A stretch of DNA of 44,766 nucleotides from a virus, in the IMG/VR virus record IMGVR_UViG_3300037511_000572; one strand, given 5' to 3'. How positions within the stretch are numbered: the first letter of the stretch is position 1; each line of letters begins with the position of its first letter. The notes below the pieces were generated by a model. The model was not told the DNA's origin, searched no databases, and saw only the letters and a program-made list of their open reading frames with translations. Shown one piece after another: positions 11,351 to 43,944 of this stretch. The translations under genes were made by a program, and so were the position numbers.

Positions 11351-11752
11351 ATGAAGAAGCTCATCCTCCTGCTGGCGCTGCTCGGGCCCGTTTGGGCGCC
11401 GGCCGTGCTGCGCGCGGACGACGCGGTGTCCATCGGCACGGGGGCCCGGGTCCAGGTGTCGACGTCGACTCCCACCCTGCTCTTCGCGGCCAACCGCTCG
11501 GCCAAGGGCACTAAGATCAAGGTCAACCCGATCGACGGGACCCAGACCGCGGCCTCCGCGGACGCGATCCTGGTCGGGACCTCGTCGAGCGCGTCGGACT
11601 ACTCGACGTCCCTGACCACCGGGACCTTCCGTGTGCACGCCGGGGACAAGTGGTTCGCGCTGGACGGGCCCACGTCGTTCTACCAGGGGCCGCTGTACGG
11701 CCTCGCGGTGTCGACCGGCCCGCTGAACGTCGACAGGCTGCAGACGAAGTAG
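11351..11752 (+). CDS. Small secreted protein (signal peptide)
   Basis: AGGAGG RBS. N-terminus MKKLILLLALLGPVWAPAVLRADDA has a typical Sec cleavage motif. Confidence 0.6.
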   Translation: MKKLILLLALLGPVWAPAVLRADDAVSIGTGARVQVSTSTPTLLFAANRSAKGTKIKVNPIDGTQTAASADAILVGTSSSASDYSTSLTTGTFRVHAGDKWFALDGPTSFYQGPLYGLAVSTGPLNVDRLQTK

Positions 11753-11762
11753 GGAGGGCGCC

Positions 11763-12026
11763 ATGGCGGACACGCAGGTATACTACTCCGGGCTCCTGAG
11801 CACGATCGACGCGCGCATCTCCGCGCTGATCACCAGCCAGGAGGTGGACTACCAGGTCGGCAACGTCCGCGTGTCGGCGAACCAGAAGTTCGAGCAGCTC
11901 ATGAAGATGCGCGAGCACGTCATCAAGCGCATGGCCGAGAAGCCGTACGAGTCGTGGGAGGTCGTGCAGACGGACTTCTCCGCGTTCGGCGAGAACCTCG
12001 GGACGTTCGTGGACGAGAACCCGTGA
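11763..12026 (+). CDS. Hypothetical protein (possible head-tail connector component)
   Basis: 87 aa, located between the capsid and connector genes. Confidence 0.5.
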   Translation: MADTQVYYSGLLSTIDARISALITSQEVDYQVGNVRVSANQKFEQLMKMREHVIKRMAEKPYESWEVVQTDFSAFGENLGTFVDENP

Positions 12027-13971: not shown

Positions 13972-14028
13972 GCCGGAAAGATAAACCGAGACGCCGACCC
14001 GCGAGGGCGGAAAGGGAGGATGGAGCCA

Positions 14029-15123
14029 ATGTCAGAGCCCACCCAGAAGTCACTAGTGGAAGAGCAGCTGAAGGACTTGAAGGACGCGGGCCTGCCCGTC
14101 AGCAAGGGCATCCGCACGTTCAAAGACAACCAGCGCAAGACGAGCAAGTTCAACGAGAGGGTCCTAACGTTCTGGCTGCCGCAGTGGGCCAGGCAGGCGG
14201 CGATGAACTTCAAGGACATCTCCGGCGCGCCGAGCATGGGCTGGCTGAGGGCCTCCGCGAAGGGTCTGCCCGTGGTCGTGTGCGGCATCGGGCCGTCGCT
14301 CGACGGGGACCTCGAGACCCTGCGCAAGGCCCAGTCCAACCTCATCATCGTCGCCACCGACGCGGCGGTTCGACCCCTCCTGGCCGCTGGCGTGAAGCCG
14401 CACCTGGCCGTAAACTTCGACTGCAAGCAGAAGCAGCACACCCTCTTCGACGGGCTCAACAGCCTGACGTGGGACATCCCGCTGCTCGCCAACTCGTGCG
14501 CGCACCCGGACATGCTATCGGCCTGGCTCGGCCCGAAGCTCTACTTCAACATGCAGCACTTCGGGGTCGACTTCATGGACGCGGTGCTGCCGAACATCTA
14601 CCCGGAGTTCCAGCCCATGTCCAACCACGGGACCGTCGGCAACTCGGCGATCCTCGTGGCCTACCAGATGGGAGCGCGCCACATCATCCTCTCCGGCATG
14701 GACCTGTGCTACCAGAAGGTCGGCGACGGGTTCAAGTACCGCTGCAGGGACCACGCCTGGCGCGAGGCCGACGAGCAGGCCGGCCTACCAGCGGGCTGGG
14801 TCGAGAAGGAGAACAAGGTCCTCTACGACAACGACGACAGGCTCGCGCACACGTTCGAGGTCAAGGTCAAGGAGCGGGCGTTCCTGGTGGACGACCCACT
14901 CGACCAGTACCGCAAGATGGCCCTCGGGATCATAGGCTCCCTAGGCAACGTCGACGTAGTAGACTGCGCGCCGGACGGGATACTGAAGGCCTCCGGGGTC
15001 CGCGGCATGACGATAGGGGACGCGGTCACGGAGTTCGCGGCGCGCCCCATTGAGCCAGGAGAGGCCACGATTCTGCACCTGCCTCGGCTACTGCCGAGAG
15101 CAAAAGACGCCAAAGGCGCTTAG
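14029..15123 (+). CDS. Maf / MptE-like (DUF115) putative glycosyltransferase
   Basis: VVVCGIGPSLD ... LIIVATDAAVRPLLAAGVKPHLAVNFD ... GTVGNSAILVAYQMGARHIILSGMDLCY matches the DUF115 core. The ATG at 14029 has better RBS spacing than the track start at 14020. Confidence 0.75.
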   Translation: MSEPTQKSLVEEQLKDLKDAGLPVSKGIRTFKDNQRKTSKFNERVLTFWLPQWARQAAMNFKDISGAPSMGWLRASAKGLPVVVCGIGPSLDGDLETLRKAQSNLIIVATDAAVRPLLAAGVKPHLAVNFDCKQKQHTLFDGLNSLTWDIPLLANSCAHPDMLSAWLGPKLYFNMQHFGVDFMDAVLPNIYPEFQPMSNHGTVGNSAILVAYQMGARHIILSGMDLCYQKVGDGFKYRCRDHAWREADEQAGLPAGWVEKENKVLYDNDDRLAHTFEVKVKERAFLVDDPLDQYRKMALGIIGSLGNVDVVDCAPDGILKASGVRGMTIGDAVTEFAARPIEPGEATILHLPRLLPRAKDAKGA

Positions 15124-15133
15124 GAGGAGACAC

Positions 15134-15322
15134 ATGGAAGCGATCAAGGAGACGCCGCCGCCCATCGAGAGCGTGGCCGCGGCGCAGAAGAAGGAGAAGC
15201 TGGTGTTCAACCCCGGGCAGCTCGTGCCGCTCAACGGGGTCTGGTTCCAGATCGAGCGGGTCGAGAAGGAGGGCCTGTTCCTCAAGGCCGTCGGGTTCAC
15301 GAAGAACAGGGGGCGGAAATGA
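15134..15322 (+). CDS. Small hypothetical protein (62 aa) inside the glycosylation cassette
   Basis: AGGAGGAG RBS. Overlaps the next ATG (ATGA). Confidence 0.5.
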   Translation: MEAIKETPPPIESVAAAQKKEKLVFNPGQLVPLNGVWFQIERVEKEGLFLKAVGFTKNRGRK

Positions 15323-16332
15323 ACATCGTACACGTGACCACGACCGACCCCGCCGGCTCGGTCATCAACTTCGTGAACGCGGTCAACCGGCACACGCCGC
15401 ACCGCGCGAGGCTCATCACCACGAACAGGATCGAGGAGTACGACTTCCCGGCCGACCTACACTGGATCATGGACGGGGGCGACGAGATGTTCGCCCTCCT
15501 GGAGCAGGCGGACGTCATCCACCTGCACAAGGTGGACAACGAGTTCGAGCTAGAGGTCGACATGCCCAAGCTCGGCGTAGTCCGCAAGCTGAGCATCGCG
15601 GAGCTCCTCAAGCAGTTCCCGCAGAAGAAAGTGGTCTACCACATCCACGGCCACCCCTACGAGAGGGGCAACGTGGAGGAGAACGCGGCCAACTACAAGG
15701 CCCTCGGCGGGAGGGTGCTTTGCTCGACGCCGGACCTGGAGGAGATGTACAAGCCGCATTACGACGGCGTCCAGTACTTCCCGAACTGCGTGCCGGTGAA
15801 CGACGTGACCTACCTGCCCAGGCCGGTGGACGCGCCGATCCTCGGCTCAGACGGCGTTGCGCGGTACCTGGTCTCGCAGACGCCCACGCACGCGGTCCTG
15901 AAGAACTGCCACGTGATCGAGCAGGCCGTGCGGAACGTGGCAAAGAAGCACCCCGTGGCGTACGACAAGGCCTGGAACCTGCCCCAGCACTTCGCACTCC
16001 GGCGCAAGCGCATCTCCTCGGTGGTGTTCGACCACATCGAGGGGTATTACGGGCTTTCCAGCCTAGAGGGCCTGAGCATGGGCAAGCCCGTCATCGCCGG
16101 CCTGTCCGACTACACCATCTGCTCGATCGCGTCGTTCTTCGGGATCACCCCGCAGGACCTGCCGTGGGTCGTGGCGAGGGACCAGCAGCAGATCGAGGAG
16201 AAGCTGGACCTCCTGTTCAGCGACGAGGCGTACCGGCATGCGGCCGGCAAGGCGTCCCGCAAATTCATGGAGGAGGTCTGGAGTGATCGAGTTATCGGAC
16301 AACGACTGGCCGCATTCTACTCCTCCCTGTAA
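15319..16332 (+). CDS. GT-B fold glycosyltransferase (GT4-like)
   Basis: C-terminal FDHIEGYYGLSSLEGLSMGKPVIAG resembles the GT4 E-x7-E region. About 337 aa with a two-Rossmann-domain layout. Confidence 0.8.
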   Translation: MNIVHVTTTDPAGSVINFVNAVNRHTPHRARLITTNRIEEYDFPADLHWIMDGGDEMFALLEQADVIHLHKVDNEFELEVDMPKLGVVRKLSIAELLKQFPQKKVVYHIHGHPYERGNVEENAANYKALGGRVLCSTPDLEEMYKPHYDGVQYFPNCVPVNDVTYLPRPVDAPILGSDGVARYLVSQTPTHAVLKNCHVIEQAVRNVAKKHPVAYDKAWNLPQHFALRRKRISSVVFDHIEGYYGLSSLEGLSMGKPVIAGLSDYTICSIASFFGITPQDLPWVVARDQQQIEEKLDLLFSDEAYRHAAGKASRKFMEEVWSDRVIGQRLAAFYSSL

Positions 16333-17050
16333 GGGGGAGCCGCCGGCCAACACGGTCGGGATCGTAATCCCCGTCCGCGACGGCCTGAAGTTCCTGAAGC
16401 TGAGCCTGTACTCCGTGCTATACTTCACGCCGCACCCGTACATGCTGACCATCGTGGACAACATGAGTGGGCTGAAGACCAAGAAGTTCATACGGTCATT
16501 CGAGCAGAATCACCCGACGGACGTCCTGCGCTACGACGAGCCGTTCAACTTCGCGGCCCAGGCCAACCTCGGCCTCCGGAACGTGTTCTCCAGGGGGGCG
16601 CAGTTCGGGCTCGTCCTGAACGCGGACACCATCGTCGAGCCGGACTGGCTGGGGCTGCTGGTGGAGCGCATGCTCCAGGTCAAGGAGGCCGGCGCGATCG
16701 GGCCCGTGTCCCAGGTCGGCAACCCGGAGCAGACCCTGCAGGGCAAGCGCGGGGAGCGGCTGATGCAGGTGCGCCGGCTGTCCGGCTTCTGCATGATGGT
16801 CCGCAAGGCCGCGTTCGAGCAGTCCGGCGGGTTCGACGAGTCCTTTGCCGGCGGCGGGTTCGAGGACTGGGACCTGTCGCAGCGACTGCTGGACCTCGGG
16901 TGGAAGCTGCTGGTCGACGAGCGCGTGCTGGTGTGGCACTTCCACAAAGCGTTCCGCAGGTCCCCGGAGCACGACGTGGCCATGCGCACGAACGAGCGGC
17001 GGTTCTTCGAGAAGCACCCGAAGGTCGCGGAGGAGGTGCGCCGTGCATAG
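16283..17050 (+). CDS. GT-A fold glycosyltransferase (GT2 family)
   Basis: GIVIPVRDG, LNAD (DxD-like), GFCMMVRKAAFEQSGGFDE and FEDWDLSQRL motifs. GTG start with GGAGGAGG upstream. Confidence 0.8.
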   Translation: MIELSDNDWPHSTPPCKGEPPANTVGIVIPVRDGLKFLKLSLYSVLYFTPHPYMLTIVDNMSGLKTKKFIRSFEQNHPTDVLRYDEPFNFAAQANLGLRNVFSRGAQFGLVLNADTIVEPDWLGLLVERMLQVKEAGAIGPVSQVGNPEQTLQGKRGERLMQVRRLSGFCMMVRKAAFEQSGGFDESFAGGGFEDWDLSQRLLDLGWKLLVDERVLVWHFHKAFRRSPEHDVAMRTNERRFFEKHPKVAEEVRRA

Positions 17051-17573
17051 GCAGGCGCTGGACTTCCTGGAGCGGATGAAGCAGCAGTATTGGGACGTGT
17101 TCAAGGCCAAGCGCGTGCTCGAGCTCGGCAGTCTGGACATGAATGGCTCGCCCAGAGAATTCTTCTGGGCCCCGCAGGACTACGTCGGGGTGGACTGGCG
17201 CGAGGGCAAGGGCGTCGACGAGGTCAGCATGGCCCACGAGTACCGTGGCCGGCACGACGAGTACTTCGACTGCGTGGTGTCCACCGAGATGCTGGAGCAC
17301 GACCCGAAGTGGAGGGAAACCCTCCAGCGCGCGGTCGAGCTGCTCCGACCGGGCGGCCACATTGTGCTGACGATGGCCGGAACCGGCAGGCCTCCTCACG
17401 AAGTGGGCGTGGCCCCGGGCGAGAATCCGTACTACGAGAACCGGACCATCGAGGATATCGTCCAGCACGTCACGTCGCTCGCGCACTTCAGGATGGTGCA
17501 CGCAGAGGACAACCCGAACCCGGGCGACTCGTACTTTCTGTTCTACTGCAAGACCAAAAAGGAGGGCCTCTAA
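17043..17573 (+). CDS. Class I SAM-dependent methyltransferase
   Basis: VLELGSLDMNG (motif I-like), DCVVSTEMLEH and LLRPGGHIVLT. GTG overlaps the upstream stop. Confidence 0.7.
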   Translation: MHRQALDFLERMKQQYWDVFKAKRVLELGSLDMNGSPREFFWAPQDYVGVDWREGKGVDEVSMAHEYRGRHDEYFDCVVSTEMLEHDPKWRETLQRAVELLRPGGHIVLTMAGTGRPPHEVGVAPGENPYYENRTIEDIVQHVTSLAHFRMVHAEDNPNPGDSYFLFYCKTKKEGL

Positions 17574-31161: not shown

Positions 31162-31469
31162 ACCTATCACTGGAACAACGGCTCACCAGGGTCGAGAATA
31201 AAGTGCGCATCATGCGCGCTCTAGTCACCAAGATGTACCAGACGTTCTACGCCGGCCAGATCAGGAGGGCGAACACCTACGGGCGCATGCTGGCCAAGCT
31301 CAGGTACAACACGCGAGCCGTGGAGCGCAGGCTCCCGTCATTCCTGCGCCTCGCAAGGATCGCCTCCGGCCTGTCCCGCGGTAGGTCCGTTGTCACGCTC
31401 GACCCGCGAGAGTACAACCAGCTCAGGGCACTGCTGAAGAGGAAGGTGCCGTTCCGGCGTAGGCCCTAG
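31158..31469 (+). CDS. Hypothetical basic protein (103 aa)
   Basis: ATGA overlap with the upstream gene. Its stop is shared in CTAG with the convergent gene. Confidence 0.5.
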   Translation: MNLSLEQRLTRVENKVRIMRALVTKMYQTFYAGQIRRANTYGRMLAKLRYNTRAVERRLPSFLRLARIASGLSRGRSVVTLDPREYNQLRALLKRKVPFRRRP

Positions 31470-31837
31470 AACTCCTTGCCGCCGTGCATGTGGGGCCGTC
31501 CCGCGTTGAACTCCATCTTCGCGAGGACGGCCTCACTGATTTTCAGGCCGGTCTTGCCGGCGTAGGACATGATCCTGATTATGACGTCGGCTAGTTCCTC
31601 CTCCAGGCCGGAAAATTCCGGTATGTGGTCCGACTGCGGATTGCCGTGTCGCAAGAACTCGAGGGCCTCGCTCAACTCGGAGTGCATGAGGGCTATCTGC
31701 TCGGCATGGTTCGGGTCCTTGTCCCACCATCCCTTGTCCCTTGCTGTGTTGAACGCCGCGGCCTGCAGGAGCCCGAACGCCTCCTTGAACGCCTCGCGCG
31801 CTAGCTTACCGACATACTCCTTCTTTTGGGTTTCCAT
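31466..31837 (-). CDS. MazG-like nucleoside triphosphate pyrophosphohydrolase
   Basis: HSELSEALEFLRHG ... EELADVIIRIMSYA is an all-alpha NTP-PPase (EExxE/D-type) pattern. GAGGAGGA RBS before the ATG at 31837. Confidence 0.75.
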   Translation of the reverse strand: METQKKEYVGKLAREAFKEAFGLLQAAAFNTARDKGWWDKDPNHAEQIALMHSELSEALEFLRHGNPQSDHIPEFSGLEEELADVIIRIMSYAGKTGLKISEAVLAKMEFNAGRPHMHGGKEF

Positions 31838-33624
31838 CTCTCCTCCTCGGCGGCCCATTCCTTCTTATCTGCCCAACTCTTGTCCGTCACGGACACGTCC
31901 ACGCTGATCTTGACTGGGAACGTTATGTTGTCCTCCAGCCCGTCGACCAGCGCATGCTTCGCGTCCCATACCTGGTCCCTGCGGACCTCGATGCCGAGCT
32001 CGTCGTGCACGGTTATGAACGGATGCGCGTCCAACCCGACCAGGTTCTTGAACGTGTTGTTTATCCCGCGCTTCATGACGAGAGCCGCCGGGCCCTGGCA
32101 CAGGACGTTGGCGGCCTTGTAGCAGAGGTCCTTCGGGACATGATACGTCCTGCCAAACTGGTCCGTTACGTAGCCGTCCCTCAGCAGGTCGGCCTGAGAC
32201 TTCAGGAGGAAGTCCCTCGCCTGCGGCACCTCGCTAAAGAACTTGCCCTTGAGCTGCCTGGCCTTGTCCACCGTCACGCCCATCCGCGCGGCACACCTCG
32301 CTACGCCCATCCCGAATATGAAAGAGAAGTTAAGCTCCTTGGCCTGAAAGCGGATGCGCTTTATCTCGTCCTTCGACTTGCCGTCCATGCAATTCTTCCC
32401 GAACAGGCGATAGGCATTGGCCGTGTGGAAGTCCACACCCCTGCGCAGGTCCGCCAATATCCCTGGGTCGCCGACGTGGCAGGCGAATATACGGAACTCT
32501 ATCTGGGAGTAGTCCGCAAAGAGGAAGACGTAACCAGGCCGCGGGACCACCGCCCTGCGCACGAGCCCCGGGTCCTTGTTCATCTCCACGTTGCCGCCGC
32601 GCCCGCCTCCAGGAATGTTCTGGAAGTTCGGGTCTGTGCAGGAGAACCTTCCTGTTTTGATTCCGCCCTCCTCAGAGCCGAAGGGCCAGAAGTGCGGGTG
32701 AATCTTCCCGTCCTTGTTCTTCTCCAGGAACGGCTGGAAGTACGTGCTGTCTATCTTCTGGATGCTGCGCCAGTTCATCAGGGTCGATACAAACGGGTGG
32801 TCGGCATATGGCCTGAGCTCTTCGGCGCCCGTCGGCATCTGGCCCCGCGCGTTCTCCTCGCCGGTCTTAATCCCTAGGCTTTGGAGCACACTGCTTAGCT
32901 GGGCCGTTGACGCCTGATTGAACTTCACCCCGGCCAGGTCATACAGCTTCTTTTCCAGTTCCAGTTTCTTTGGCCCCAACTCTCTGAGCATCCTCTTGCA
33001 ATAGTCTAAATCCAAGTTTATGCCCCACCGTTCGAGCTCTACGATGTTGGGTATCAGCTCCTGCTCTATGTCGTACACACGTTTTTGCGGGCCGTTGACT
33101 ACGTGGCCGAATTTCCAGTTCGCCAGGAGCGTGAGGTCGAGGTCCTCTTCCAGATACGGCTCGACCATCTCTTTAGGCAAGCAGGAGTAGTTCACCTTCT
33201 CCTTCGCCTCTGGGGTCTTGGCCTTCCTGCGCAGCGCGGACAGGTATGCCTTTACCGCCTCCTCGTTCTGGGGCTCTCGGCCGAAGTGCCTCTTGCCGAC
33301 GCCCTTCAGCTTGAGATCCTGCTCATACTCATAGTTCATGTAGCACATGAGCATGGCGTCATGCACGCGGCCGCCGACCTTCACCCCCTCCTTGCGGGAT
33401 ACCGACAGGTCATACTTCACGTTCCACCCGACCTTCTCTACTGGGCTGGCCATGATTTCGCACGCGCGCTTCCACTCTGGCGTCCCGGGCCTGGCAAGCA
33501 GGACATTCCCGTCCTCGTCCTCAAGGCCCAGTAGAAACGGCTTCGCCTTCCCGACCCACACCTCCAGGCCCTCGGTCTCGTAGTCGAAGGCGACCCTGCC
33601 CGACGAGAATGGTTTCCTAGGCAT
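31801..33624 (-). CDS. polA: Family A DNA polymerase with 3'-5' exonuclease domain
   Basis: Exo I FDYETEGL. Motif A FADYSQIEFRIFA. Motif B RFQAKELNFSFIFGMG. Motif C ITVHDELGIE. Confidence 0.9.
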   Translation of the reverse strand: MPRKPFSSGRVAFDYETEGLEVWVGKAKPFLLGLEDEDGNVLLARPGTPEWKRACEIMASPVEKVGWNVKYDLSVSRKEGVKVGGRVHDAMLMCYMNYEYEQDLKLKGVGKRHFGREPQNEEAVKAYLSALRRKAKTPEAKEKVNYSCLPKEMVEPYLEEDLDLTLLANWKFGHVVNGPQKRVYDIEQELIPNIVELERWGINLDLDYCKRMLRELGPKKLELEKKLYDLAGVKFNQASTAQLSSVLQSLGIKTGEENARGQMPTGAEELRPYADHPFVSTLMNWRSIQKIDSTYFQPFLEKNKDGKIHPHFWPFGSEEGGIKTGRFSCTDPNFQNIPGGGRGGNVEMNKDPGLVRRAVVPRPGYVFLFADYSQIEFRIFACHVGDPGILADLRRGVDFHTANAYRLFGKNCMDGKSKDEIKRIRFQAKELNFSFIFGMGVARCAARMGVTVDKARQLKGKFFSEVPQARDFLLKSQADLLRDGYVTDQFGRTYHVPKDLCYKAANVLCQGPAALVMKRGINNTFKNLVGLDAHPFITVHDELGIEVRRDQVWDAKHALVDGLEDNITFPVKISVDVSVTDKSWADKKEWAAEEERWKPKRRSMSVS

Positions 33625-34096
33625 TGTTTCCAGCTATATTCGTGCGACGGCGTCGCGTGCGGAGGCCTGTGAAACCCTTCAGACTATGGTTCCTCTGCAG
33701 GCGGTTCAAGAGCCTTTTCCGAGTGCTTTTTATGCGGTTCGGCCGCATGGAATGCTCCCACACCCTTATGACGTGCCAGCCGCGCCTCCACAGCGCCTTC
33801 ACCGCCCGGACATCCCTGCGCATGTTCGCCTGGACCTTGCTGACCCAGAAGTCCACGTTCGACTTCGGCCTCTTGTAGTGCGTCGGGCACCCGTGGAAGA
33901 AGCAGCCGTGCACAAATATGGCGGTCTGGGCTGACGCCACCTTGAAGTCCGGCCGGCCCGGCAGTTCCTTCGCGTGCTCAGTGAAGACCTCCTCGGCGTC
34001 GAGCAGCATCCCGCGCATGAGGAGCTCCGGCTTCGTCCCGGTCGAGCGTATGCGGGACATGATCCAGCTACGCTTCTCTTTTGTCACCGTATCCAT
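33617..34096 (-). CDS. vsr: Very-short-patch repair (Vsr) T:G mismatch endonuclease homolog
   Basis: RSWIMSRIRSTGTKPE, LPGRPDF, IFVHGCFFHGC, FWVSKVQANMRRD and GWHVIRVWEH align with E. coli Vsr motifs. Confidence 0.85.
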   Translation of the reverse strand: MDTVTKEKRSWIMSRIRSTGTKPELLMRGMLLDAEEVFTEHAKELPGRPDFKVASAQTAIFVHGCFFHGCPTHYKRPKSNVDFWVSKVQANMRRDVRAVKALWRRGWHVIRVWEHSMRPNRIKSTRKRLLNRLQRNHSLKGFTGLRTRRRRTNIAGNNA

Positions 34097-34646
34097 GTCG
34101 TTTCCTCATGTATACAGCGCGCACTGCACCGCTTGAGCCCAGCGTGTTCACGCGCAGCAGCTCGAATCTGTTCATCCGAGCCTGCGTGTTAAACAGGCCG
34201 TTGACTGCCAACGGGGGGCCTACCTGTAGTATGACTGGCTCTATGGTCATGACTATCTGATCCACCAGGTCGTGCTGCAGGAAGAGCCCGTAGGTCGCCG
34301 CGCCGCCGCACAACATCATCTTGGTCTTATGGTTGTTCTCCAGGAAGTTCAGTATTTCGCCCGGCTTTGGCAGCAGGACGCCAACCTGCCCCTTCTGCTT
34401 CGTCCTTATGCCTGGGTCCCTGGACACCACCGCTACCGGCTTGCCAAGATTTGGCATTAGGTTCGCCGTTCGCGACCCGACTATGAGCATGCCCGCGTCC
34501 GCGAGGTCCGAATTGAAGAATTCCTTGTCCTCGGCGCTGGTCCATCCGCCTTTAGACACTTGGTTCGGGGAAGAGTCTTCCGCGGTGGATATGCGCCCGT
34601 CCAGGGACATGCACGCCACCATCTTTACCCAGGCCCTGTCGTTCAT
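34068..34646 (-). CDS. Dihydrofolate reductase-like protein (RibD C-terminal domain family)
   Basis: ACMSLDGRIS ... MLIVGSRTA ... MMLCGGAATYGLFLQHDLVDQIVMTIEPV. ATGA overlap with the upstream TS homolog. Confidence 0.7.
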   Translation of the reverse strand: MNDRAWVKMVACMSLDGRISTAEDSSPNQVSKGGWTSAEDKEFFNSDLADAGMLIVGSRTANLMPNLGKPVAVVSRDPGIRTKQKGQVGVLLPKPGEILNFLENNHKTKMMLCGGAATYGLFLQHDLVDQIVMTIEPVILQVGPPLAVNGLFNTQARMNRFELLRVNTLGSSGAVRAVYMRKRHGYGDKREA

Positions 34647-35497
34647 ATGACCAGCCTCGGGCCCGTGATCGCGGGCCACGGCTTGTACCACTCGTTGACC
34701 TGGCGGAACAGGTTCTTGGACAGCTCGTTGTCTCCGGCCATGGCGGCCATGACCATGTCCGGGAGCAGCTTGAGATAGAAGTCTCCCAGCTCCATCCTGG
34801 CCTGCCCCATGGACCGCGCGACCATCTGCACCGCCGGGTCCCACTGGTCCTCGTAGAGGTGGGCGTTGGAAATCAGGTAACCCACCTCACCAGGCCGCAC
34901 GCCCAGCTTGCACGCCATCAGCTCCTGTATTATCCTGAATCCGAGTATGTCATGAGGGAAACCGAAGTACATGTCCGCCGAGCGCTGGAGGACGTTCATG
35001 TGCAGCCTGCCGTCCATTATGTGGAAGTGCCAGGTCAGGATACACGGGGCGTTCGGCCCCGGCTTCACCAGGTCCGTGTCCGGCTGCCACGAGATGAGAA
35101 CTGCCTGCCGGCTCGTCTTGTCCTTCATCAGCCTGTCCAAGACGCCCTGCACCTGGTCGACGCCGTGCGCATGCCTCCAGCGATAGCCCGTGGCGGATCG
35201 CACGACCCCGTCCTCGTCCGCGAACTTGTCCCAGGTGCCGAAGCCATGCTGCCTCATAAGCGCCGGGGACTTCGCGCCGGACAGGAACCAGACCGCCTCG
35301 ACGCACGACCACAGCGGGCTGATGTTCCGCAGGTGGACTATGGGGAACTGAAACGGCTGGGTGTGGAAGAACAGCGCGTTGACCGCGCGCACCCACTTGC
35401 CCGTCCTGTCGTTCTTCGTCGGTGGGGCCTCTAGAATCCTGGACAGCGCCATGCCGTACTTCGAATCGAAAAGGGTTACGCGCCCTTGGTCTTGCAT
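34643..35497 (-). CDS. Thymidylate synthase (ThyA) family homolog with Asp at the Asn177 position; candidate dCMP methylase/hydroxymethylase
   Basis: KNDRTGK, VEAVWFLSG, SRQAVLISWQ, NAPC (catalytic Cys) and QRSADMYFGFPHDILGF (E. coli has QRSCDVFLGLPFNIASY). ATG at 35497; GTG at 35506 is an alternative start. Confidence 0.8.
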   Translation of the reverse strand: MQDQGRVTLFDSKYGMALSRILEAPPTKNDRTGKWVRAVNALFFHTQPFQFPIVHLRNISPLWSCVEAVWFLSGAKSPALMRQHGFGTWDKFADEDGVVRSATGYRWRHAHGVDQVQGVLDRLMKDKTSRQAVLISWQPDTDLVKPGPNAPCILTWHFHIMDGRLHMNVLQRSADMYFGFPHDILGFRIIQELMACKLGVRPGEVGYLISNAHLYEDQWDPAVQMVARSMGQARMELGDFYLKLLPDMVMAAMAGDNELSKNLFRQVNEWYKPWPAITGPRLVI

Positions 35498-35811
35498 TTC
35501 TTCCACCTCCTGAGCATCAACTCCAGCCTAGCCAGCGCGTCCCAAGCCGCGTGCGCGGCGTGCGGGAGCCCCGACTCCTCGTCGTCCCTCTCATACGCTT
35601 CCTCTAGCAGGTGGCGCCCAAGTGCGGCGGTGTACCTGTTCTCGCCGTCCTTGACGAACTGCCAGCCGCCCCTGGTATACTTCATCTTGCCGAACGTGCC
35701 CACCGCGGCCACGGCGCGCAGCGCCATGCCGAAGTCCAGCAGCAGGCTCACGTCCGGCTTCCCGCCGTCCAGCTTCATGCCCTTCTTATGAGGGTTTGGT
35801 TTTCTCGGCAC
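35476..35811 (-). CDS. DUF5664 (dATP/dGTP diphosphohydrolase N-terminal-like) protein
   Basis: DGGKPDVSLL ... FGKMKYTRGGW ... RYTAALGRHL ... DDEESGLPHAAHAAWDALARLEL matches the family pattern. Confidence 0.7.
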   Translation of the reverse strand: MPRKPNPHKKGMKLDGGKPDVSLLLDFGMALRAVAAVGTFGKMKYTRGGWQFVKDGENRYTAALGRHLLEEAYERDDEESGLPHAAHAAWDALARLELMLRRWKKCKTKGA

Positions 35812-38344
35812 CGCTCCCCTCCTTCCAGTACTTGTGCTTCTTCTTTCCGGACACTATAAGGTCAACATGGCTCCACCCCGCCCTGCGGAGGACCTCGGCC
35901 GAGTCCACCAGCCGCGTCCCCAATTGTCTGTCGTTTATCCACGGGCACCTGATCGCCAGCGACTTAGCCAGGATGCGGAAGTCGGACAACAGGTCCCGCG
36001 TGCTGAACTTCATGACCGTCTTGCCGTCGACCGTGCCCACCCTCGTCTGCGCGCCCATGAGGACGAGCTGGTTGTAGCGCGATACGTAGGTGTCCAGGAA
36101 GTAAAGGACCTCGTCCGTCCCCTCGTTCTGCCTGTGCACGGCCCTGGTCTGACTCTCCAACCAGTGCGCCGTCAGGTCCCTGGAGGACTTGTACCCCTTT
36201 ATCGGCAGGTAACCCCAGAACGCGTCAAGCATCAAGGCCATGAGGGCAAAGTACTCGTTGAACCTCTCCTTGCCGTGCGCGCCGAACGCCCCCATGATCC
36301 TGCCGACCTCGCCCTTCCTGACCCTGGGCAGGACGTGCTTGTGTATAATGTAGAGGATAGCGCTGAGTATCTTGTTCCGATTGGCCGCCAGGCCTTGGAA
36401 TATCTTTGTCTCATGGAACTTGGAATTGCCCCAACGCTCTATATCGAGCTGCAGCTCCATGGTCCTGTCGATCAGCTCGTGCTTGTTGAACGGCTCGATG
36501 CCATTGGTCAGCACCAGGCAGTTCGCGTGGTATTGGATCATGCCCGTGTCCGACGACATCATCCGCTTCGACTTCACGCCGCCGGTCGCAGCAATCAGCA
36601 GGAAGTCCTCCAGCAGCGGGGTCATGTTCCTAGTCTCCAGGTTGTCCATGAATATGATAGGGTACATGGAGCTCATCTCGTAGTAGGCCGCCATCGTAGA
36701 AGCCGCGATGTTCAGCATCTCCTGCCCGTAGAATAGGAGGCTGGCCATCTTCGAGGCGGTCGACTTCGCCGAGGCCGTCTTGGCCAGTAGCCTCACTATC
36801 GGCTTCGGCTTTATGTGGTCCCTGAAGAACATGCCGGACAGCCAGCACACGAGCAGGAACCTGTCCTCCTCGCACATGGCCAGGTTATCCATGAACAGGG
36901 AGCGCAGCAGCTGCAGGCCCTCCGCGACCGGCTTGGCTGGAAGCGTGGGTATCTCCATGCCGATCACCGGCAGGTTGAGCAGCACCTTCTCGTCGTTGAC
37001 CGCGTTCCTGATGTGCTTGCAGGACTCCTCAGAGACCTTCAGCAGCTTGTCCTTGCCAGCGTGCACGTAGAGCAGGCCCTTGTGGTACATGCTCCAGGAA
37101 CCCGTCTTCGACATGGCGCTGGCCACGGCCGCGTTGGTCTTCACCCTCTCCAGGATGAACCTGCCGACCTGCGTCGCGTTGTTGTATATGGGGTTGATCC
37201 TGCCGAGGAAGTGCATGAACGGTCCCGGGTCCTTGGTGATCTTCATCACCCCGAACTCCTCGTGCGCGTAGAAGCACTCGCCGGCCTCGCTCTTGAAGAA
37301 GGCCCCGTTGTCTACCAGTGCGTCCCACACAGCCTCCGACCTGGCGACCAGGCGCTCCTCGTCGGTGGACCTAGCGGTCGCCTCGTAAGCCAGGCCAGGC
37401 AGCATGCCCGTCTCCTTGCGCGCGTGGCTCTGCTTCTCTCCGGCCTTCTTCTCGACCTTCGCCAGCTGGAGCAGCTCCTCGGCCGAGCCCTCGTACTTCA
37501 GCAGCCAGTCGGTCAGGTCCTCCCCTGGCTCCTTTAGCCTAGGCAGCTCGACGATCCTGCACGACCTGGCTGTCTTGGACAGTTCGGCCATCCTGTTCTG
37601 CGCGCCTTTCATGCCGGGGCCGTCGTTGTCCGGGACGATTACTACGTCTTTCCCTTTGAACAGCTTGTTCCACTCCGGCTTCCACGTGGTCGCGCCGCCG
37701 GACGGGGTTATTGTGCTGAGCCCGTGTTGCGCCCCTAGGATCGCGTCCATCTCGCCCTCTACCACAATGACGGTGTCGAACTTCAGGCTCTCCAACGGGA
37801 ACAGCCTGGCCGAGCCGTATCCCTCCTTGTATGAGAGCATCTTCGGCCCGCCGGTCTTCAGCAGGTCATACTTGCGCAGGTTCACGCACATGCCCAGGTC
37901 GTTGAATATGGGGATCGTCAGTCGGCCGTTCTGGTAGCCGAGGTTGAAGCCCTTGACGGTCTTCAGCTCTATGCCACGCATCTCCTTCAAGCGGCCAAGG
38001 ATAAACGTGTTCTCAAGCAGTTTTTTGTGCGGGGTCTTGTACTCTTCAGGAGGGATAACGGGCTCCACCCAGTTCGAGTAGAGTATGCGGGCGGCGGCTT
38101 CCCTGGAGACCTCTTTGTAGTCAGAGAAGAAGTACACGGGGGACGTGGCCTTGTAGCCGCAGCCGTGGCAGAAGGCCCCGCCGGTGTCTGAAAAAAGCTT
38201 AAGCGACGGCAGCGAGTCCTTCCCGCCGCGGTGCTTCTCGGGCCACGGGCAAGCGACGTTGCTCTTGCCGTCCCATTCCAAGAGGTCTCTGTAGAACTCT
38301 TGCACGTCCATGGACTTCTTTATGCGCTCCAGAATCTGTTCCAC
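35786..38344 (-). CDS. Bifunctional DNA primase / helicase
   Basis: Zinc finger CPWPEKH...CHGCG. TOPRIM VIVVEGEMDAI ... VIVPDNDGPG. C-terminal P-loop-like domain. GTG at 38344 has GGAGGA 8 nt upstream; the track start at 38431 is a TTG. Confidence 0.8.
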   Translation of the reverse strand: MEQILERIKKSMDVQEFYRDLLEWDGKSNVACPWPEKHRGGKDSLPSLKLFSDTGGAFCHGCGYKATSPVYFFSDYKEVSREAAARILYSNWVEPVIPPEEYKTPHKKLLENTFILGRLKEMRGIELKTVKGFNLGYQNGRLTIPIFNDLGMCVNLRKYDLLKTGGPKMLSYKEGYGSARLFPLESLKFDTVIVVEGEMDAILGAQHGLSTITPSGGATTWKPEWNKLFKGKDVVIVPDNDGPGMKGAQNRMAELSKTARSCRIVELPRLKEPGEDLTDWLLKYEGSAEELLQLAKVEKKAGEKQSHARKETGMLPGLAYEATARSTDEERLVARSEAVWDALVDNGAFFKSEAGECFYAHEEFGVMKITKDPGPFMHFLGRINPIYNNATQVGRFILERVKTNAAVASAMSKTGSWSMYHKGLLYVHAGKDKLLKVSEESCKHIRNAVNDEKVLLNLPVIGMEIPTLPAKPVAEGLQLLRSLFMDNLAMCEEDRFLLVCWLSGMFFRDHIKPKPIVRLLAKTASAKSTASKMASLLFYGQEMLNIAASTMAAYYEMSSMYPIIFMDNLETRNMTPLLEDFLLIAATGGVKSKRMMSSDTGMIQYHANCLVLTNGIEPFNKHELIDRTMELQLDIERWGNSKFHETKIFQGLAANRNKILSAILYIIHKHVLPRVRKGEVGRIMGAFGAHGKERFNEYFALMALMLDAFWGYLPIKGYKSSRDLTAHWLESQTRAVHRQNEGTDEVLYFLDTYVSRYNQLVLMGAQTRVGTVDGKTVMKFSTRDLLSDFRILAKSLAIRCPWINDRQLGTRLVDSAEVLRRAGWSHVDLIVSGKKKHKYWKEGSGAEKTKPS

Positions 38345-38453
38345 TCGGCGGTCCTCCCCAGTGAGGGTTGAGAGGAGGGACACCTCGAGCCGGGGGACGC
38401 CACCCTCACAGTGGCGGAGCCCCCGGCCCAAGGGCCCTTCTGTCTTCGGGCTG

Positions 38454-39540: not shown

Positions 39541-40350
39541 TTATTTCTTTTTCTTGAGGATTAGTTTCCTGACGCCAGGCTTCTCGGCGGCAGGCTTGCT
39601 CTTGGGCCGTCCGCCCTCGAGCAGGTACTTCTCCACCAGCTCGAAGCCGTTGGCCTCGGTCGGGTGGGGTATGTAGAGGCTCTCGGGCAGGAGGGTCGTC
39701 CTGTCCTTGGCCTCCATAGACTCGGTGGGCTGGAAGTACATCCTTCTGCCCATCTGGTCGTCCGTCCCGCTGGTGGCGTCGAAGCCCAGGTAAGCGATGA
39801 TGTCCATCATGGGCTGCAGCACCTTCCAGCCGGGGTTCTTCAGGGTTGGCTCTGTCTTGGTGATCGAGGAGAAGCGCGTCTTGCGCTCCTTGTCGTGCGC
39901 GTGCGAGACGAAGAAGAGGCCATACCTCCCGATCCCCACCAGCTTGAGTATCTCGGCGGTGAACTCACGCTCGATGAGGTCGTAGGCCTTCCCATACGGC
40001 TCGTCCGCCTGGTGCTCGATGCCGCGCTTCTCGCAGATGTACTTCTGGCACATCGCCACGAGGTGGTCGGCGAGGTCGAGGCAGACCGCGTTGTAGTGCG
40101 CGGGCCGCTCGAGCGACAACGCCTTCACGTACTTCTTGAACGTCGCCCAGCTGTCGATCGGCCTGGCCATCGCCTTGAGGAACTTCGTGCCGCCGTCCGT
40201 GCTCAGGAAGAGGACCTTGTCCGCCTGGTTAAAGAACGTCGACTTGCCCGTTCCCGGCGGCCCATAGATCAGCCACTTGAGCGCCCGCAGGTTGGTGTTC
40301 TCGAGCACTGCGTCCTTCGGTAATACTATGCCTTCGCTGATGATTCCCAT
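39541..40350 (-). CDS. AAA_24 / Sak4-like recombination ATPase
   Basis: Walker A WLIYGPPGTGKSTF. Walker-B-like NAVCLDLAD. About 270 aa. Confidence 0.8.
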   Translation of the reverse strand: MGIISEGIVLPKDAVLENTNLRALKWLIYGPPGTGKSTFFNQADKVLFLSTDGGTKFLKAMARPIDSWATFKKYVKALSLERPAHYNAVCLDLADHLVAMCQKYICEKRGIEHQADEPYGKAYDLIEREFTAEILKLVGIGRYGLFFVSHAHDKERKTRFSSITKTEPTLKNPGWKVLQPMMDIIAYLGFDATSGTDDQMGRRMYFQPTESMEAKDRTTLLPESLYIPHPTEANGFELVEKYLLEGGRPKSKPAAEKPGVRKLILKKKK

Positions 40351-40427: not shown

Positions 40428-40631
40428 CTACGCCAGCTGCACCTGCACCGCGGACAGACCCTTCGGGCCCTGCTTGACCTCGAACTCGACCGCCGCGTTC
40501 TCGACCAGCCCCTCGCGCTTGGACTTGTCCACAAGCGCGGAGTGGTGCACGAACACCTCCTCGCCGCCCTCGTCGTTCTTGATGAAGCCGTAGCCCTTGA
40601 CCTGGTTGAACCACTTGACCTTGCCCTTCAT
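40428..40631 (-). CDS. csp: Cold-shock protein (CspA family)
   Basis: MKGKVKWFNQVKGYGFI (RNP1) and EVFVHHS (RNP2). 67 aa with an AGGAGG RBS. Confidence 0.9.
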   Translation of the reverse strand: MKGKVKWFNQVKGYGFIKNDEGGEEVFVHHSALVDKSKREGLVENAAVEFEVKQGPKGLSAVQVQLA

Positions 40632-41047
40632 TGTGATACCTCCTGGATTTGATCGTACCTCACTCCGCACTGGGCCAGAACCTCCAGGGCCTGCTGCGCC
40701 TCTGGGTCGTCCCACCTTCGCGCGAACACCACCCTTTCCGCCCCGACGTTCACCATCATCCTTGCGCAGGACAAGCATGGAGACATCGAGGTGTAGAACG
40801 TCGCCCCAACAAGTGCCACGCCGTTCCTTGCCGCCTGCACTATCGCGTTCTCCTCCGCGTGGCAGTAGTGCCTCTTTGTGGTCTCCTGGCTCTCGTCCCA
40901 GCCCTTCGGGGTCCCATTGTATCCGGTAGACAGCACGATGCCGTCGACGGTTACCACGCACCCCACTTTCGTTCTCGGCCATGTTGACCTCGTAGAGACA
41001 AGCTCCGCCATGCGGAGGAAGTATACTTCCAGACTAGGCCGCGACAT
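40628..41047 (-). CDS. Deoxycytidylate (dCMP) deaminase
   Basis: Zinc motifs CHAEENAI and SPCLSCARMM, with GYNGTP upstream. About 139 aa. Confidence 0.85.
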   Translation of the reverse strand: MSRPSLEVYFLRMAELVSTRSTWPRTKVGCVVTVDGIVLSTGYNGTPKGWDESQETTKRHYCHAEENAIVQAARNGVALVGATFYTSMSPCLSCARMMVNVGAERVVFARRWDDPEAQQALEVLAQCGVRYDQIQEVSQ

Positions 41048-41314: not shown

Positions 41315-42361
41315 CTAATCCCCTCGTTCCTCGGGCAGCTCCTCGTGCGCGCGCTCCTTAATGCGGTAGTGCAGGAGGTTCTCCTTCGTCACGCCGTCGA
41401 GGCAAAGCTTCATGAACGGGCACGTCCCCATCGCCGTGCAGTGGCCGGCGTTCTGGATGAAGTCGTTCTCCCGCTGGGCCCTGTCGACGTGCTTGATGAA
41501 CTTGACCGTCTCCCGGCCAAAGCGGTCGAGGTCGGAGTCGTTGAACAGGATGGGCTCGCGGTAGAAGTAGGCGCCGGGGTTGAGGTAGTACTCGTCCTCC
41601 ACGCGCCTGAGGAACTGCCGGAGGGACTCGGACTGCTTCTGCCGTATCTGCGGCTTCTTCACCACGTTGTAGACGATCCCGCCAAACTTCTCGCCGCCGG
41701 ACTCGCGCTGGGACCAGGCGTATCCGAGTATCTGGTTGTCCATGGGGAGCTTGGCCACGTAGCCGGCGTCTATCCTCCCGGCCGTCTTGTGCTCCACCAG
41801 GAGGAGCCGCTTCGTCTTCTTGCTGCGGACCACCAGGTCCTTCTTGCCGGTGTACCTCCAGCCGTCCGGCAGGTCCGCCTTGAACACGCCCTCGGCCTCT
41901 ATGAGGTCCCACGCCTTCCTGTCCTCGGCCAGGTACTTCTGCTTGTAGCCCTTGACCATGCCGACGACCACCGCCTGCTGCATCCAAATGAGGTCCGACT
42001 CCTCGGCCCTCAGGCCCGGCGTCTTGCAGGCCTTCTCGCACGCGTCGCCGACCCTGTCCCGCATGGCCTCCTCGTCCAGCTTCCACGTCTTGTACATGTA
42101 CTCCATCTCGTTGTGGAAGAGGCCGCCCACGAGGAACGGGATGGACGGCTTGCGCGGCGCCAGGCCGTAGACGTAGGAGTACTGGTACTTCTGCTGGCAG
42201 TTGAGGAAAGTGGAGCGCGCAGAGTTCGTAAGGACCTTCCCCCACTTGAACGGCTTGAGGTCCTTGACCCCGGCGAACGTGACCTCCCCGGCCATGTGGC
42301 GCCCGGAGGACTGGCCGTCCCAGAGGTCCTTGAACTTCGCGAGTGCGTCGTTGCCCTTCAC
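41315..42361 (-). CDS. PD-(D/E)xK exonuclease, Cas4/RecB-like with a Cys cluster
   Basis: GKKDLVV ... LLLVEHKT (D...ExK). One N-terminal Cys plus C-terminal HCTAMGTCPFMKLC. GTG at 42361 overlaps the upstream stop; an ATG at 42295 is an alternative start. Confidence 0.75.
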   Translation of the reverse strand: MKGNDALAKFKDLWDGQSSGRHMAGEVTFAGVKDLKPFKWGKVLTNSARSTFLNCQQKYQYSYVYGLAPRKPSIPFLVGGLFHNEMEYMYKTWKLDEEAMRDRVGDACEKACKTPGLRAEESDLIWMQQAVVVGMVKGYKQKYLAEDRKAWDLIEAEGVFKADLPDGWRYTGKKDLVVRSKKTKRLLLVEHKTAGRIDAGYVAKLPMDNQILGYAWSQRESGGEKFGGIVYNVVKKPQIRQKQSESLRQFLRRVEDEYYLNPGAYFYREPILFNDSDLDRFGRETVKFIKHVDRAQRENDFIQNAGHCTAMGTCPFMKLCLDGVTKENLLHYRIKERAHEELPEERGD

Positions 42362-42510
42362 AGCATGTCCTCTATCAAGGCGTACACGACCAACAGGATG
42401 GGAGTGAATGCGCACCCTGCCAGGAACTGCCTGTTTGTTACCAATCCAAATAGGCAGATTAGCCCAAGCATGGCAGCAATGCCGAGCCCCTTCAAACGCC
42501 AGTCGTTCAT
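42358..42510 (-). CDS. Small two-TM membrane protein (50 aa)
   Basis: GAGGAG RBS. GLGIAAMLGLICLFGLV and FLAGCAFTPILLVVYALI. Confidence 0.5.
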   Translation of the reverse strand: MNDWRLKGLGIAAMLGLICLFGLVTNRQFLAGCAFTPILLVVYALIEDML

Positions 42511-43132: not shown

Positions 43133-43280
43133 GTAGTAGAGGTATAGGTAGTAGTAGTTAGGGTGGTGGTGGTGGTGGGGGTGTAATGTATTACGTATAG
43201 GGCCTCTCCGATCCGGACCCTCTCTTACACCCTTATATGCTCACACGCCGGGCCATCACCACCACCACTACAGCTATTAC
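43133..43280. repeat. Trinucleotide-repeat tract (GTA)n / (GGT)5 with a distal inverted partner (CAC)4
   Basis: gtagtagaggtataggtagtagtagttagggtggtggtggtggtggggg at 43133-43181. caccaccaccac at 43257-43268 is the reverse complement of the GGT run. Small palindromes lie between them. Confidence 0.6.
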
Positions 43281-43738
43281 AGCTTTAGCATCCTTGGCCT
43301 CGAGGCCCAGAACCCGTGCAGGATGTTCCACGCCACCTGCTCGGCCTCCAGCCTCCCCGAGCAGAAGTAGGGCGCGACCCCCCGCCTGGTGCAGGACTTG
43401 AAGAGCTGGGCCACCACCCTGTCCGGCTCGGCCCACGAGAACCTGGACCCGAGGCTCACCCTCTGCAGGTCCCCCTCGACCACCACCGCCATGAACTTCA
43501 GCCCCATGTCCATCGACCTCTCCAGCTCGCGCTCGAACCTCTCCAGCCCCTTGGTCATGGTCAGGAACAGGTCCTCCACCGACTTGCGCTCCACGGCCAC
43601 CACGGAGGACATGCCCTGGACCGAGTAGTCGCCCACGTGCAGCTTCTGCGGCTTCAGCCTCACGGTCCTGCCCGCGAAGCGCCACGGGTTCTGCTCTCTG
43701 GTGTCCACCAGCACGGTCGGCAGCCTGAACACGCTCAT
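43277..43738 (-). CDS. ERCC4-type nuclease (possible junction resolvase)
   Basis: VLVDTREQ ... VGDY ... VERKSVEDL motifs. The ATG at 43738 overlaps the upstream stop. Confidence 0.75.
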   Translation of the reverse strand: MSVFRLPTVLVDTREQNPWRFAGRTVRLKPQKLHVGDYSVQGMSSVVAVERKSVEDLFLTMTKGLERFERELERSMDMGLKFMAVVVEGDLQRVSLGSRFSWAEPDRVVAQLFKSCTRRGVAPYFCSGRLEAEQVAWNILHGFWASRPRMLKL

Positions 43739-43872
43739 ATCGTGGCCGCCTGGGGGAACTGAATCTCCAGGTCCTCCGCGTCCGCGAACCTCTCGCAGCC
43801 GCACCCGGCGTTGACGCACGCGCCCTCCATGAGGAGGTGCACCCTTTGATCGTGCCCGCACAGACAGTCCAT
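43735..43872 (-). CDS. Small Cys-rich, zinc-binding-like protein (45 aa; below the ORF-track cutoff)
   Basis: AGGAGA lies 5 nt before the ATG. MDCLCGH ... CVNAGCGC. Stop overlaps the next ATG (ATGA). Confidence 0.5.
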   Translation of the reverse strand: MDCLCGHDQRVHLLMEGACVNAGCGCERFADAEDLEIQFPQAATI

Positions 43873-43903
43873 CGTCGTCTCCTGTGCTCTTTCTTGTGGG
43901 CAT

Positions 43904-43944
43904 AAAAAGGCCGAGGCCCCACACCCTTCCGAGTGTGAGGCCCC
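43904..43944 (-). terminator. Rho-independent terminator after 43971..44600
   Basis: On the - strand: 12-bp stem ggggcctcacac / gtgtggggcctc (two G-U pairs), loop tcggaagg, then ggccttttta. Confidence 0.55.

Follow-up and report, generated by a model that had tools for sequence, protein, structure and literature searches.

Which nucleotide is modified by a thymidylate synthase (TS) homologue that carries aspartate in place of the active-site asparagine, and what product does it release? The question is raised by a gene (34643..35497, minus strand) in a 44,766-nucleotide stretch of viral DNA, IMG/VR record IMGVR_UViG_3300037511_000572. The stretch as a whole (hereafter, the window) comprises nearly an entire contig of 44.8 kb. 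We consider it probable that the encoded enzyme is a folate-dependent C5-methyltransferase of deoxycytidine monophosphate (dCMP) that feeds 5-methyl-dCTP to the phage DNA polymerase, as in Xanthomonas phage XP12. The analysis establishes residues and gene content, and from these we infer every activity discussed below.

A thymidylate synthase homologue with aspartate at position 177

The open reading frame begins with an ATG at position 35497 and encodes 284 amino acids, with an alternative GTG start at 35506. The protein matches Pfam family PF00303 (Thymidylat_synt, 3.5e-39) and PHROG 160, thymidylate synthase (3.3e-45), and a phmmer search returned ThyA chains from the PDB at 5e-28 to 1e-24. 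Membership of the TS family had been proposed in an earlier sequence-only reading, which did not give the strand, and is borne out by these matches. The AlphaFold2 model, built with 51 homologues, has a pLDDT of 95.8 and a pTM of 0.94, and its top Foldseek matches are full-length canonical ThyA structures with a TM score of approximately 0.8. The ThyA equivalog cut-offs of NCBIfam are missed, the best score being 111 bits versus 327. On the basis of PF00303, the residue census described below and the model, the gene is annotated as a TS-family enzyme with Asp177 and a predicted dCMP methyltransferase (5-methyl-dCMP synthase). The public Joint Genome Institute call for an identical protein is 269 amino acids long and begins at an internal methionine (MALSRIL); it is probably truncated at the N-terminus, because homologues align from approximately residue 6–8 of the 284-residue form.

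Residues are numbered here as in E. coli ThyA unless stated otherwise; Cys146 and Asp177 correspond to Cys152 and Asp183 of the phage protein, and residues 94 and 176 to its Thr103 and His182. The motifs that the sequence-only reading had aligned by hand were each reproduced by HMMER alignments. In one segment, which begins with qrsad in both proteins, phdilgf of the phage protein aligns with pfniasy of ThyA, placing Asp opposite Asn177 (PHD versus PFN). In another, napciltwhf aligns with lapchaffqf, so that Cys146 is retained with Ile at position 147. A census based on a MAFFT alignment agrees with both assignments. It finds Arg21, Glu58, Trp80, Arg126, Cys146, Arg166, Ser167, Asp169, His207 and Tyr209 to be retained, and the altered positions to be N177D, F176H, H147I, Y94T, W83F, R127Q and L143N. 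As the alignment is free of indels between the anchors Trp80 and Trp98 and also around Cys146, these assignments are firm and are not alignment artefacts, and chance falls far short of accounting for the agreement. The C-terminal tail of the phage protein, 'YKPWPAITGPRLVI', corresponds to 'YDPHPGIKAPVAI' of E. coli ThyA.

The same residues recur in a clade of related proteins (P0001–P0045) obtained by a word-indexed search. These are 38–100% identical to the query, and at least 44% identical with the exception of P0045. All are metagenomic, often encoded on contigs of 35–45 kb, and the next level of identity, approximately 29%, corresponds to ordinary ThyA. N177D and F176H are present together in all 44 members whose sequence covers those positions. 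His147 is never kept in the 44 members, the position being Ile, Leu or Val throughout. Asn143 and Asp169 are found clade-wide, the latter without exception; the segment SATG.RWR is likewise invariant, and the tail is present and conserved as Gly-Pro-x-Leu-Val-x. The proton relay of Tyr94 and His147 is absent (Thr94 and Ile147).

An HMMER search of 1.84 billion representatives was used to compare the clade with other TS-like enzymes, and the best 150 matches were classified by their residues at positions 143, 169 and 177. The signature N/D/D, of the XP12 type, dominates this set (83 of the best 150). The remaining classes include D/D/D, corresponding to T4-like dCMP hydroxymethylases (19), L/D/N, corresponding to ordinary ThyA (14), and D/D/N, corresponding to hydroxymethylases of deoxyuridine monophosphate (dUMP; 11). 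Among these 150 matches, the proteins with an acidic residue at position 143 lack the ThyA-like tail and mostly lack Trp80; those with Asn143 retain both. The Asn143 group is itself split in two, with Pro147 and Tyr176 in one part (XP12) versus an aliphatic residue at 147 and His176 in the other (the clade and its neighbours). In a neighbour-joining tree of 158 sequences (100 bootstraps), support is 99% for the clade and 68–85% for a separate His176 lineage. No characterized member of that lineage was found in the literature.

Substrate and product of the enzyme

Asn177 is the uracil determinant of TS, and the N177D exchange switches the enzyme from dUMP to dCMP, giving a dCMP methylase (PMC8670742). 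Positions 177 and 147 were also the best discriminators of modified-cytosine from unmodified viral contigs in a metavirome genotype–phenotype study (PMC8670742). As Asp177 is invariant in the 44 clade members and His147 is lost clade-wide, dCMP is favoured over dUMP as the substrate. The sequence-only reading had inferred that a dCMP methylase or hydroxymethylase is probably encoded and that the DNA may carry a 5-substituted cytosine. That proposal is supported by the rule for positions 177 and 147, by the invariant aspartate and by the prevalence of the XP12-type signature among the nearest 150 matches.

If the aspartate were simply tolerated, the enzyme could instead be an ordinary TS in the classic dTMP pathway of dCMP deaminase, TS and dihydrofolate reductase (DHFR), and the DNA would be canonical. 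In databases the protein is called thymidylate synthase, its fold and C-terminal tail resemble those of ThyA, the catalytic residues are kept apart from positions 94, 147 and 177, and genes for the whole canonical trio are present. We nevertheless regard this explanation as highly unlikely. Asp177 is invariant not only in the clade but in at least 83 neighbouring representatives that match XP12, it is the very residue that redirects specificity to dCMP (PMC8670742), and Tyr94 and His147 have been replaced as well. The bit score falls well below the ThyA equivalog cut-off, and XP12 uses the same trio of enzymes for the synthesis of 5-methylcytosine (5mC). An ordinary TS would also leave unexplained a conserved gene for a Vsr endonuclease, described below, in a genome where no cytosine methyltransferase motif was found.

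The product of TS-like enzymes is set by the residue three positions before the catalytic cysteine, where Asp or Glu activates water for hydroxymethylation and TS has Leu (PMC6400193). In the phage enzyme this residue is Asn (PGPNAPC) and not Asp or Glu as in hydroxymethylases. The TS homologue of XP12, which has the same residue, produces 5-methyldeoxycytidine in vivo (bioRxiv 10.1101/2024.12.05.627091). Methylation is favoured over hydroxymethylation or hydroxylation because the triad of XP12 (Asn143, Asp169 and Asp177), Trp80 and the tail are all retained. The choice between methylase and hydroxymethylase left by the sequence-only reading can thus be narrowed to methylation, on the strength of Asn143, Asp169, the tail, a coupled DHFR gene, and the presence of Vsr and a deaminase in the gene module.

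A dCMP hydroxymethylase resembling T4 gp42 would hydrate the methylene intermediate and give DNA with 5-hydroxymethylcytosine (5hmC), possibly glycosylated. Such an activity seems unlikely here, although several features could be read in its favour. Asp177 is common to T4 gp42, residue 143 is polar and not hydrophobic, Trp83 is replaced by Phe, the network of Tyr94 and His147 is altered, and the deep nodes of the tree have bootstraps below 30%. A serine is present at the index of T4 Ser94, but the equivalent of T4 Tyr96 is Thr, and the serine does not discriminate because XP12 has it too. Against a hydroxymethylase, the D145N exchange in T4 alone abolishes the formation of 5-hydroxymethyl-dCMP (PMC6400193), and the phage enzyme has Asn at that position. 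The T4 enzyme also lacks the tail at the C-terminus with which TS seals its site for hydride transfer (PMC6400193); the phage protein keeps a ThyA-type tail together with Trp80, unlike the homologues with an acidic residue at 143. Dihydrofolate, and hence a need for DHFR, arises from methylation only; hydroxymethylation yields tetrahydrofolate and would make the coupled DHFR pointless (PMC6400193). The T:G mismatch targeted by Vsr comes from deamination of 5mC and not of 5hmC. Lastly, BLASTP gives 4e-5 for T4 gp42 versus approximately 1e-37 for the XP12 enzyme.

The glycosylation that a hydroxymethylase might be coupled to could be sought in a four-gene cassette at 14020-17573 (plus strand; 14.0–17.6 kb). 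It encodes an MptE-like/Maf-PseD-like protein (PF01973, 8.6e-34), a 337-residue protein of unknown function, a GT2 glycosyltransferase (1.8e-10) and a class I S-adenosylmethionine methyltransferase (2.9e-9). A role of this cassette in DNA glycosylation may be envisaged and would bear on the case for 5hmC. However, it is situated in the virion-structural block, 18 kb away and on the other strand, and resembles flagellin or protein-glycosylation genes (PseD-like). It looks like a cassette for glycosylation of virion proteins or surface glycans.

For an active site with Thr94, His176 and an aliphatic residue at 147, one could imagine that a cytosine nucleotide undergoes another or an additional reaction at C5, or that dCMP and dUMP are both accepted. 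His176 is invariant beside Asp177, and no characterized enzyme of its lineage was found that could serve as a guide; among the best 150 representatives, which span all known classes, replacement of Tyr94 is limited to this lineage. Moreover, TS homologues have recently been shown to carry out flavin-dependent hydroxylation (PMC13326640). Such a departure is nonetheless improbable in our estimation. Asp169, which is changed in the flavin-dependent hydroxylases, is kept, as are the folate-site residues, Trp80 and the tail; the linkage to DHFR argues for normal reductive methylation, and an XP12-like function is more parsimonious.

Two more specific assignments were considered and ruled out. The D169N exchange is the mark of the flavin-dependent 5-hydroxy-dCMP synthases, newly described TS homologues (PMC13326640), and a synthase of the RB69 gp48 type is excluded by the retained Asp169. 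A CMP-specific enzyme like MilA is excluded by the location of the gene in a phage replication operon and by the retained Ser167.

The replication operon and its Vsr endonuclease

The TS homologue lies within a run of overlapping open reading frames, all on the minus strand, in the order primase/helicase (35786-38431), PF18909 protein, TS homologue, DHFR-like reductase, Vsr, family A DNA polymerase (PolA) and MazG-like protein. The gene directly before the TS homologue (35476..35811) encodes a small protein of 111 amino acids with the N-terminal domain of a dATP/dGTP diphosphohydrolase (PF18909, 2.1e-22; PHROG 801), and its 3' end overlaps the TS start. This small all-alpha protein is possibly nucleotide-related; no sequence match to it was found in the PDB. 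When the window was compared with clade contigs L007–L009, L011 and L012, the gene in this position was seen to be of two unrelated kinds, encoding either the PF18909 protein of approximately 110 residues or a protein of 135–152 residues without a family match.

Downstream, there is an overlap of 7 nt between the ATG of the DHFR-like gene (34068..34649) and the TS stop codon. The product has a RibD_C fold (Pfam RibD_C, 2.4e-13; PHROG dihydrofolate reductase) and is a predicted recycler of dihydrofolate. Its top match in the PDB is the DHFR of Thermotoga maritima (PDB code: 1cz3, 6e-8), and its homologues also match the family DHFR_1. The polymerase (31801..33624; Pfam DNA_pol_A, 9.7e-65) has a 3'-5' exonuclease domain and shows no more than 29% identity with any phage record. 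It is predicted to incorporate the modified dCTP and is a candidate for patch synthesis initiated by Vsr. The MazG-like protein (31466..31858) is an all-alpha nucleoside-triphosphate pyrophosphohydrolase (PHROG pyrophosphatase, 5.6e-30; weak match to Pfam MazG). By analogy with dCTP pyrophosphatase 1 (DCTPP1/RS21-C6), its top match in the PDB, it is a candidate dCTPase, which would use up dCTP and yield dCMP.

Approximately 5 kb from this operon is a gene for a protein of the dCMP/dCTP-deaminase family (40628..41047, minus strand), identified by the motif HAE...PCxxC in a regular-expression search and by Pfam dCMP_cyt_deam_1 (5.1e-22). It is 33–35% identical to the deaminases of XP12 and DoCa10 and 44–57% identical to those of the clade contigs. 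In XP12, neighbours of the deaminase family supply thymidine nucleotides from 5-methyl-dC nucleotides (bioRxiv 10.1101/2024.12.05.627091), and the same role is predicted here by analogy. The longest open reading frame in the region 40428-41047 (minus strand), 40428-40982, is spurious in its N-terminal half; the real genes, in different frames, are that of the deaminase and one for a cold-shock-domain protein (40428-40640). Neither a second TS nor a ThyX motif was found in the window, and motif IV of C5 DNA methyltransferases was absent from all six frames. The only methyltransferase found in the window, in the virion block, is of the small-molecule or protein type.

These components can be arranged into a pathway for synthesis and upkeep of 5mC. 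The MazG/DCTPP1-like pyrophosphatase would convert dCTP to dCMP. In the TS homologue, Cys146 would attack C6 of dCMP while Asp177 reads N3 and N4 of cytosine, and methylene-tetrahydrofolate would donate the carbon. With the site held closed by the retained Trp80 and tail, hydride transfer from tetrahydrofolate would yield 5-methyl-dCMP and dihydrofolate, and the translationally coupled DHFR-like reductase would restore tetrahydrofolate. Host kinases could then produce 5-methyl-dCTP, to be incorporated by the phage family A polymerase. The deaminase-family enzyme may convert part of the pool of 5-methyl-dC nucleotides into thymidine nucleotides, for which XP12 and mSCD-B5 provide a precedent; we propose that this supply would account for the lack of a dUMP-specific TS in the window. 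Vsr would nick T:G mismatches arising from spontaneous deamination of 5mC, and the polymerase encoded next to it would fill the patch.

The module was compared in 11 contigs of the clade (the window, L005–L012, the P0004 contig and L016). The order is constant: a small protein, the TS homologue, DHFR and Vsr where present, PolA, and the MazG-like protein. DHFR directly follows TS in 8 of the 11 contigs, and Vsr occupies the same position in seven (the window, L005, L008, L009, L012, L016 and the P0004 contig). PolA is found downstream of these genes in all clade contigs, and the MazG-like gene after the polymerase in every one examined. The deaminase is present in all but one of the contigs that cover its region. 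The deaminase, MazG-like protein and PolA also agree with the gene set reported around Asp177 TS genes on modified contigs (bioRxiv 10.1101/2024.12.05.627091). A megablast search with 20 kb against 50,697 phage records returned no match and no cultured relative. In Pseudomonas phage 73, genes for a deaminase and a MazG-like protein are present, with no annotated TS in the 25 kb examined.

A scan of IMG/VR matched five loci, the window not being among them. Two IMG/VR relatives, L018 and L019 (10001-10774, plus strand), encode TS homologues of 32% identity in which the PHD motif is kept, with genes for a DHFR-like protein, a deaminase and a polymerase downstream. Their TS has His three residues before the catalytic Cys, and the region of Tyr94 is shorter and divergent; they represent a further uncharacterized subtype. 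The window also contains a recombination set that is conserved across the clade contigs, encoded entirely on the minus strand: a Sak4-like annealing protein (39541-40350), a PD-(D/E)XK (Cas4-like) exonuclease (41315-42415) and an ERCC4-type nuclease (43277-43924).

The Vsr-type T:G mismatch endonuclease is encoded at 33617..34096 (minus strand), in a frame that overlaps two others, the DHFR-like gene upstream and that of the polymerase downstream. The protein matches Pfam Vsr (1.7e-21) and scores 114.8 bits with TIGR00632 of NCBIfam (cut-off 97.85). E. coli Vsr (PDB code: 1cw0) aligns over its full length (residues 6–134, 5e-19), with the motifs GRPDF, HGCF.H, FW and VWE kept. Homologues occur in 40 of the 50,697 phage records, the best matches being unannotated faecal contigs (L013–L015) with no TS, DHFR or polymerase gene nearby. 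The phage Vsr proteins described so far accompany a sequence-specific cytosine methyltransferase (PMC3483164); the window encodes no such partner by the six-frame motif search.

Relative to the window, Vsr of the clade contigs is 42–46% identical, TS 47–53% and the polymerase 58–59%; between L008 and L009 the values are 61%, 56% and 60%, respectively. As its divergence tracks that of TS and the polymerase, Vsr appears to be an inherited component and not a recent mobile insertion. A mobile homing endonuclease is unlikely for the same reason, and also in view of the fixed position of the gene and a score above the Vsr family cut-off. In L005, the Vsr homologue (11388-11792, plus strand; 43% identity over 141 amino acids) lies in an uncalled gap between the RibD_C and polymerase genes. 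We found no paper linking Vsr to a nucleotide-level dCMP methylase, and as far as the literature search shows, the recurrent association of Vsr with an Asp177 TS homologue, the most surprising feature of the locus, is new. It is conceivable, though we advance this only tentatively, that the phage combines a Vsr of its own with genome-wide 5mC produced at the level of nucleotides and, at the same time, that the clade is a mechanistically distinct type of dCMP C5-modifying enzyme, in which Thr94, His176 and an aliphatic residue at 147 replace the otherwise near-universal proton relay of Tyr94 and His147 in the TS superfamily.

A number of observations weigh against assignment of the enzyme as an XP12-like dCMP methyltransferase. 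Tyr94 has been called essential for abstraction of the C5 proton (PMC8670742, PMC6400193) and is near-universal in all other classes among the best 150 matches, its replacement being confined to this lineage; all but one of the 44 clade members (43) have Thr instead. The combination of an aliphatic residue at 147 with His176 differs from the Tyr94, Pro147 and Tyr176 of XP12, so that the chemistry could differ as well. Asn143 is polar, in contrast to the bulky hydrophobic residue to which the exclusion of water is ascribed. In the phylogeny, the clade and the His176 lineage were recovered, but deeper nodes fall below 30% and give no placement relative to XP12-type enzymes or hydroxymethylases; phylogeny alone therefore assigns no product. 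With regard to gene content, DHFR is missing in 3 of the 11 contigs and Vsr in 4, no phage deoxynucleoside monophosphate kinase was found, the match of the MazG-like protein to DCTPP1 is weak (6e-4), a GT2 glycosyltransferase is encoded in the genome, and deaminase, TS and DHFR together also constitute the ordinary dTMP pathway. The pattern of restriction sites is compatible with modification and is not diagnostic: palindromic 4-mers containing C show no avoidance, with CTAG alone being low, as it is in XP12.

Significance and comparison with known systems

If the enzyme is a dCMP methyltransferase, a further group of viruses would fully replace C with 5mC to escape restriction, in this case a high-GC phage lineage of approximately 45 kb that is known from metagenomes only, with at least 45 enzyme clusters at 90% identity and no cultured relative. 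Natural dCMP methylases would then extend to an active site without Tyr94 and His147, which would be of use for understanding C5 proton abstraction in enzymes of the TS fold and for predicting DNA modification from sequence. Should the pairing with Vsr also hold, Vsr would act without the sequence context of a methyltransferase, in a virus-encoded repair pathway that maintains a non-canonical base; more generally, where a virus uses a hypermutable substitute base, it may encode a repair enzyme to match. The Vsr of the window would be a candidate context-independent T:G nicking enzyme, and one that recognizes T:G in any context could serve in tools for methylation sequencing or mismatch detection. 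The gain is incremental, since the concept that an Asp177 TS homologue leads to modified cytosine is already established by XP12 and by two metavirome screens that selected for Asp177.

The closest known system is the dCMP methyltransferase of XP12 (MT664984, QNN97214), together with its Bosavirus relatives and the Asp177 homologues from metaviromes. The XP12 enzyme is the best BLASTP match among characterized references (31% identity, 9e-37) and shares the TS fold, Cys146, Asp169, Asp177, Asn143, Trp80, Phe83 (in WDKF) and a C-terminal tail of the form Pro-x-hydrophobic. Genes for DHFR, a protein of the dCMP-deaminase family, a nucleotide hydrolase and a family A polymerase are nearby in both, with no second TS. 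The XP12 cluster comprises a hydrolase, TS, deaminase and DHFR, and that of its relative Donnerlittchen a pyrophosphohydrolase, TS, deaminase and DHFR. Unlike XP12, with Tyr94, Pro147, Tyr176 and Arg127, the clade has Thr94, Ile, Leu or Val at 147, His176 and Gln127. The DHFR here belongs to the RibD_C/T. maritima type, the hydrolase encoded upstream is all-alpha versus HAD in XP12, and the 38.8 kb of XP12 examined contains no annotated Vsr. As judged by megablast, the phage backbones are also unrelated, and the His176 lineage is separate in the tree.

T4 gp42, which uses dCMP and methylene-tetrahydrofolate, has in common with the phage enzyme the TS fold, the catalytic Cys, Asp179 (equivalent to Asp177), Glu58, Arg166, Ser167, His207 and Tyr209, although the identity is only 21%. 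It differs in having Asp145 where the phage enzyme has Asn, Tyr96 where it has Thr, and no tail. The DNA glucosyltransferases of T4 adjoin gene 42, whereas none adjoins the TS homologue here. In comparison to ThyA of E. coli and M. tuberculosis, the full-length fold of the dimer type, the phosphate-binding arginines, the folate-site Asp169 and the tail correspond; the differences are the seven substitutions of the census. The 5-hydroxy-dCMP synthases RB69 gp48 and DLP3 gp80 are likewise Asp177 TS homologues from phages and have dCMP as their substrate, but they carry D169N and an acidic residue at 143, in contrast to Asp169 and Asn143 here.

With respect to repair, the locus resembles the Dcm–Vsr system of E. 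coli and the modules of Burkholderia phages KL3 and AH2, in which Vsr is linked to a source of 5mC and presumably corrects T:G mismatches that deamination produces; here that source is a predicted one. Vsr works with a family A polymerase in very-short-patch repair of E. coli, and a gene for a family A polymerase adjoins that of Vsr here. Unlike those systems, which rely on a sequence-specific methyltransferase, the predicted dCMP methylase would act at the nucleotide level and place 5mC in every context. Among the known enzymes of the XP12 type, the clade is an uncharacterized addition with a divergent active site.

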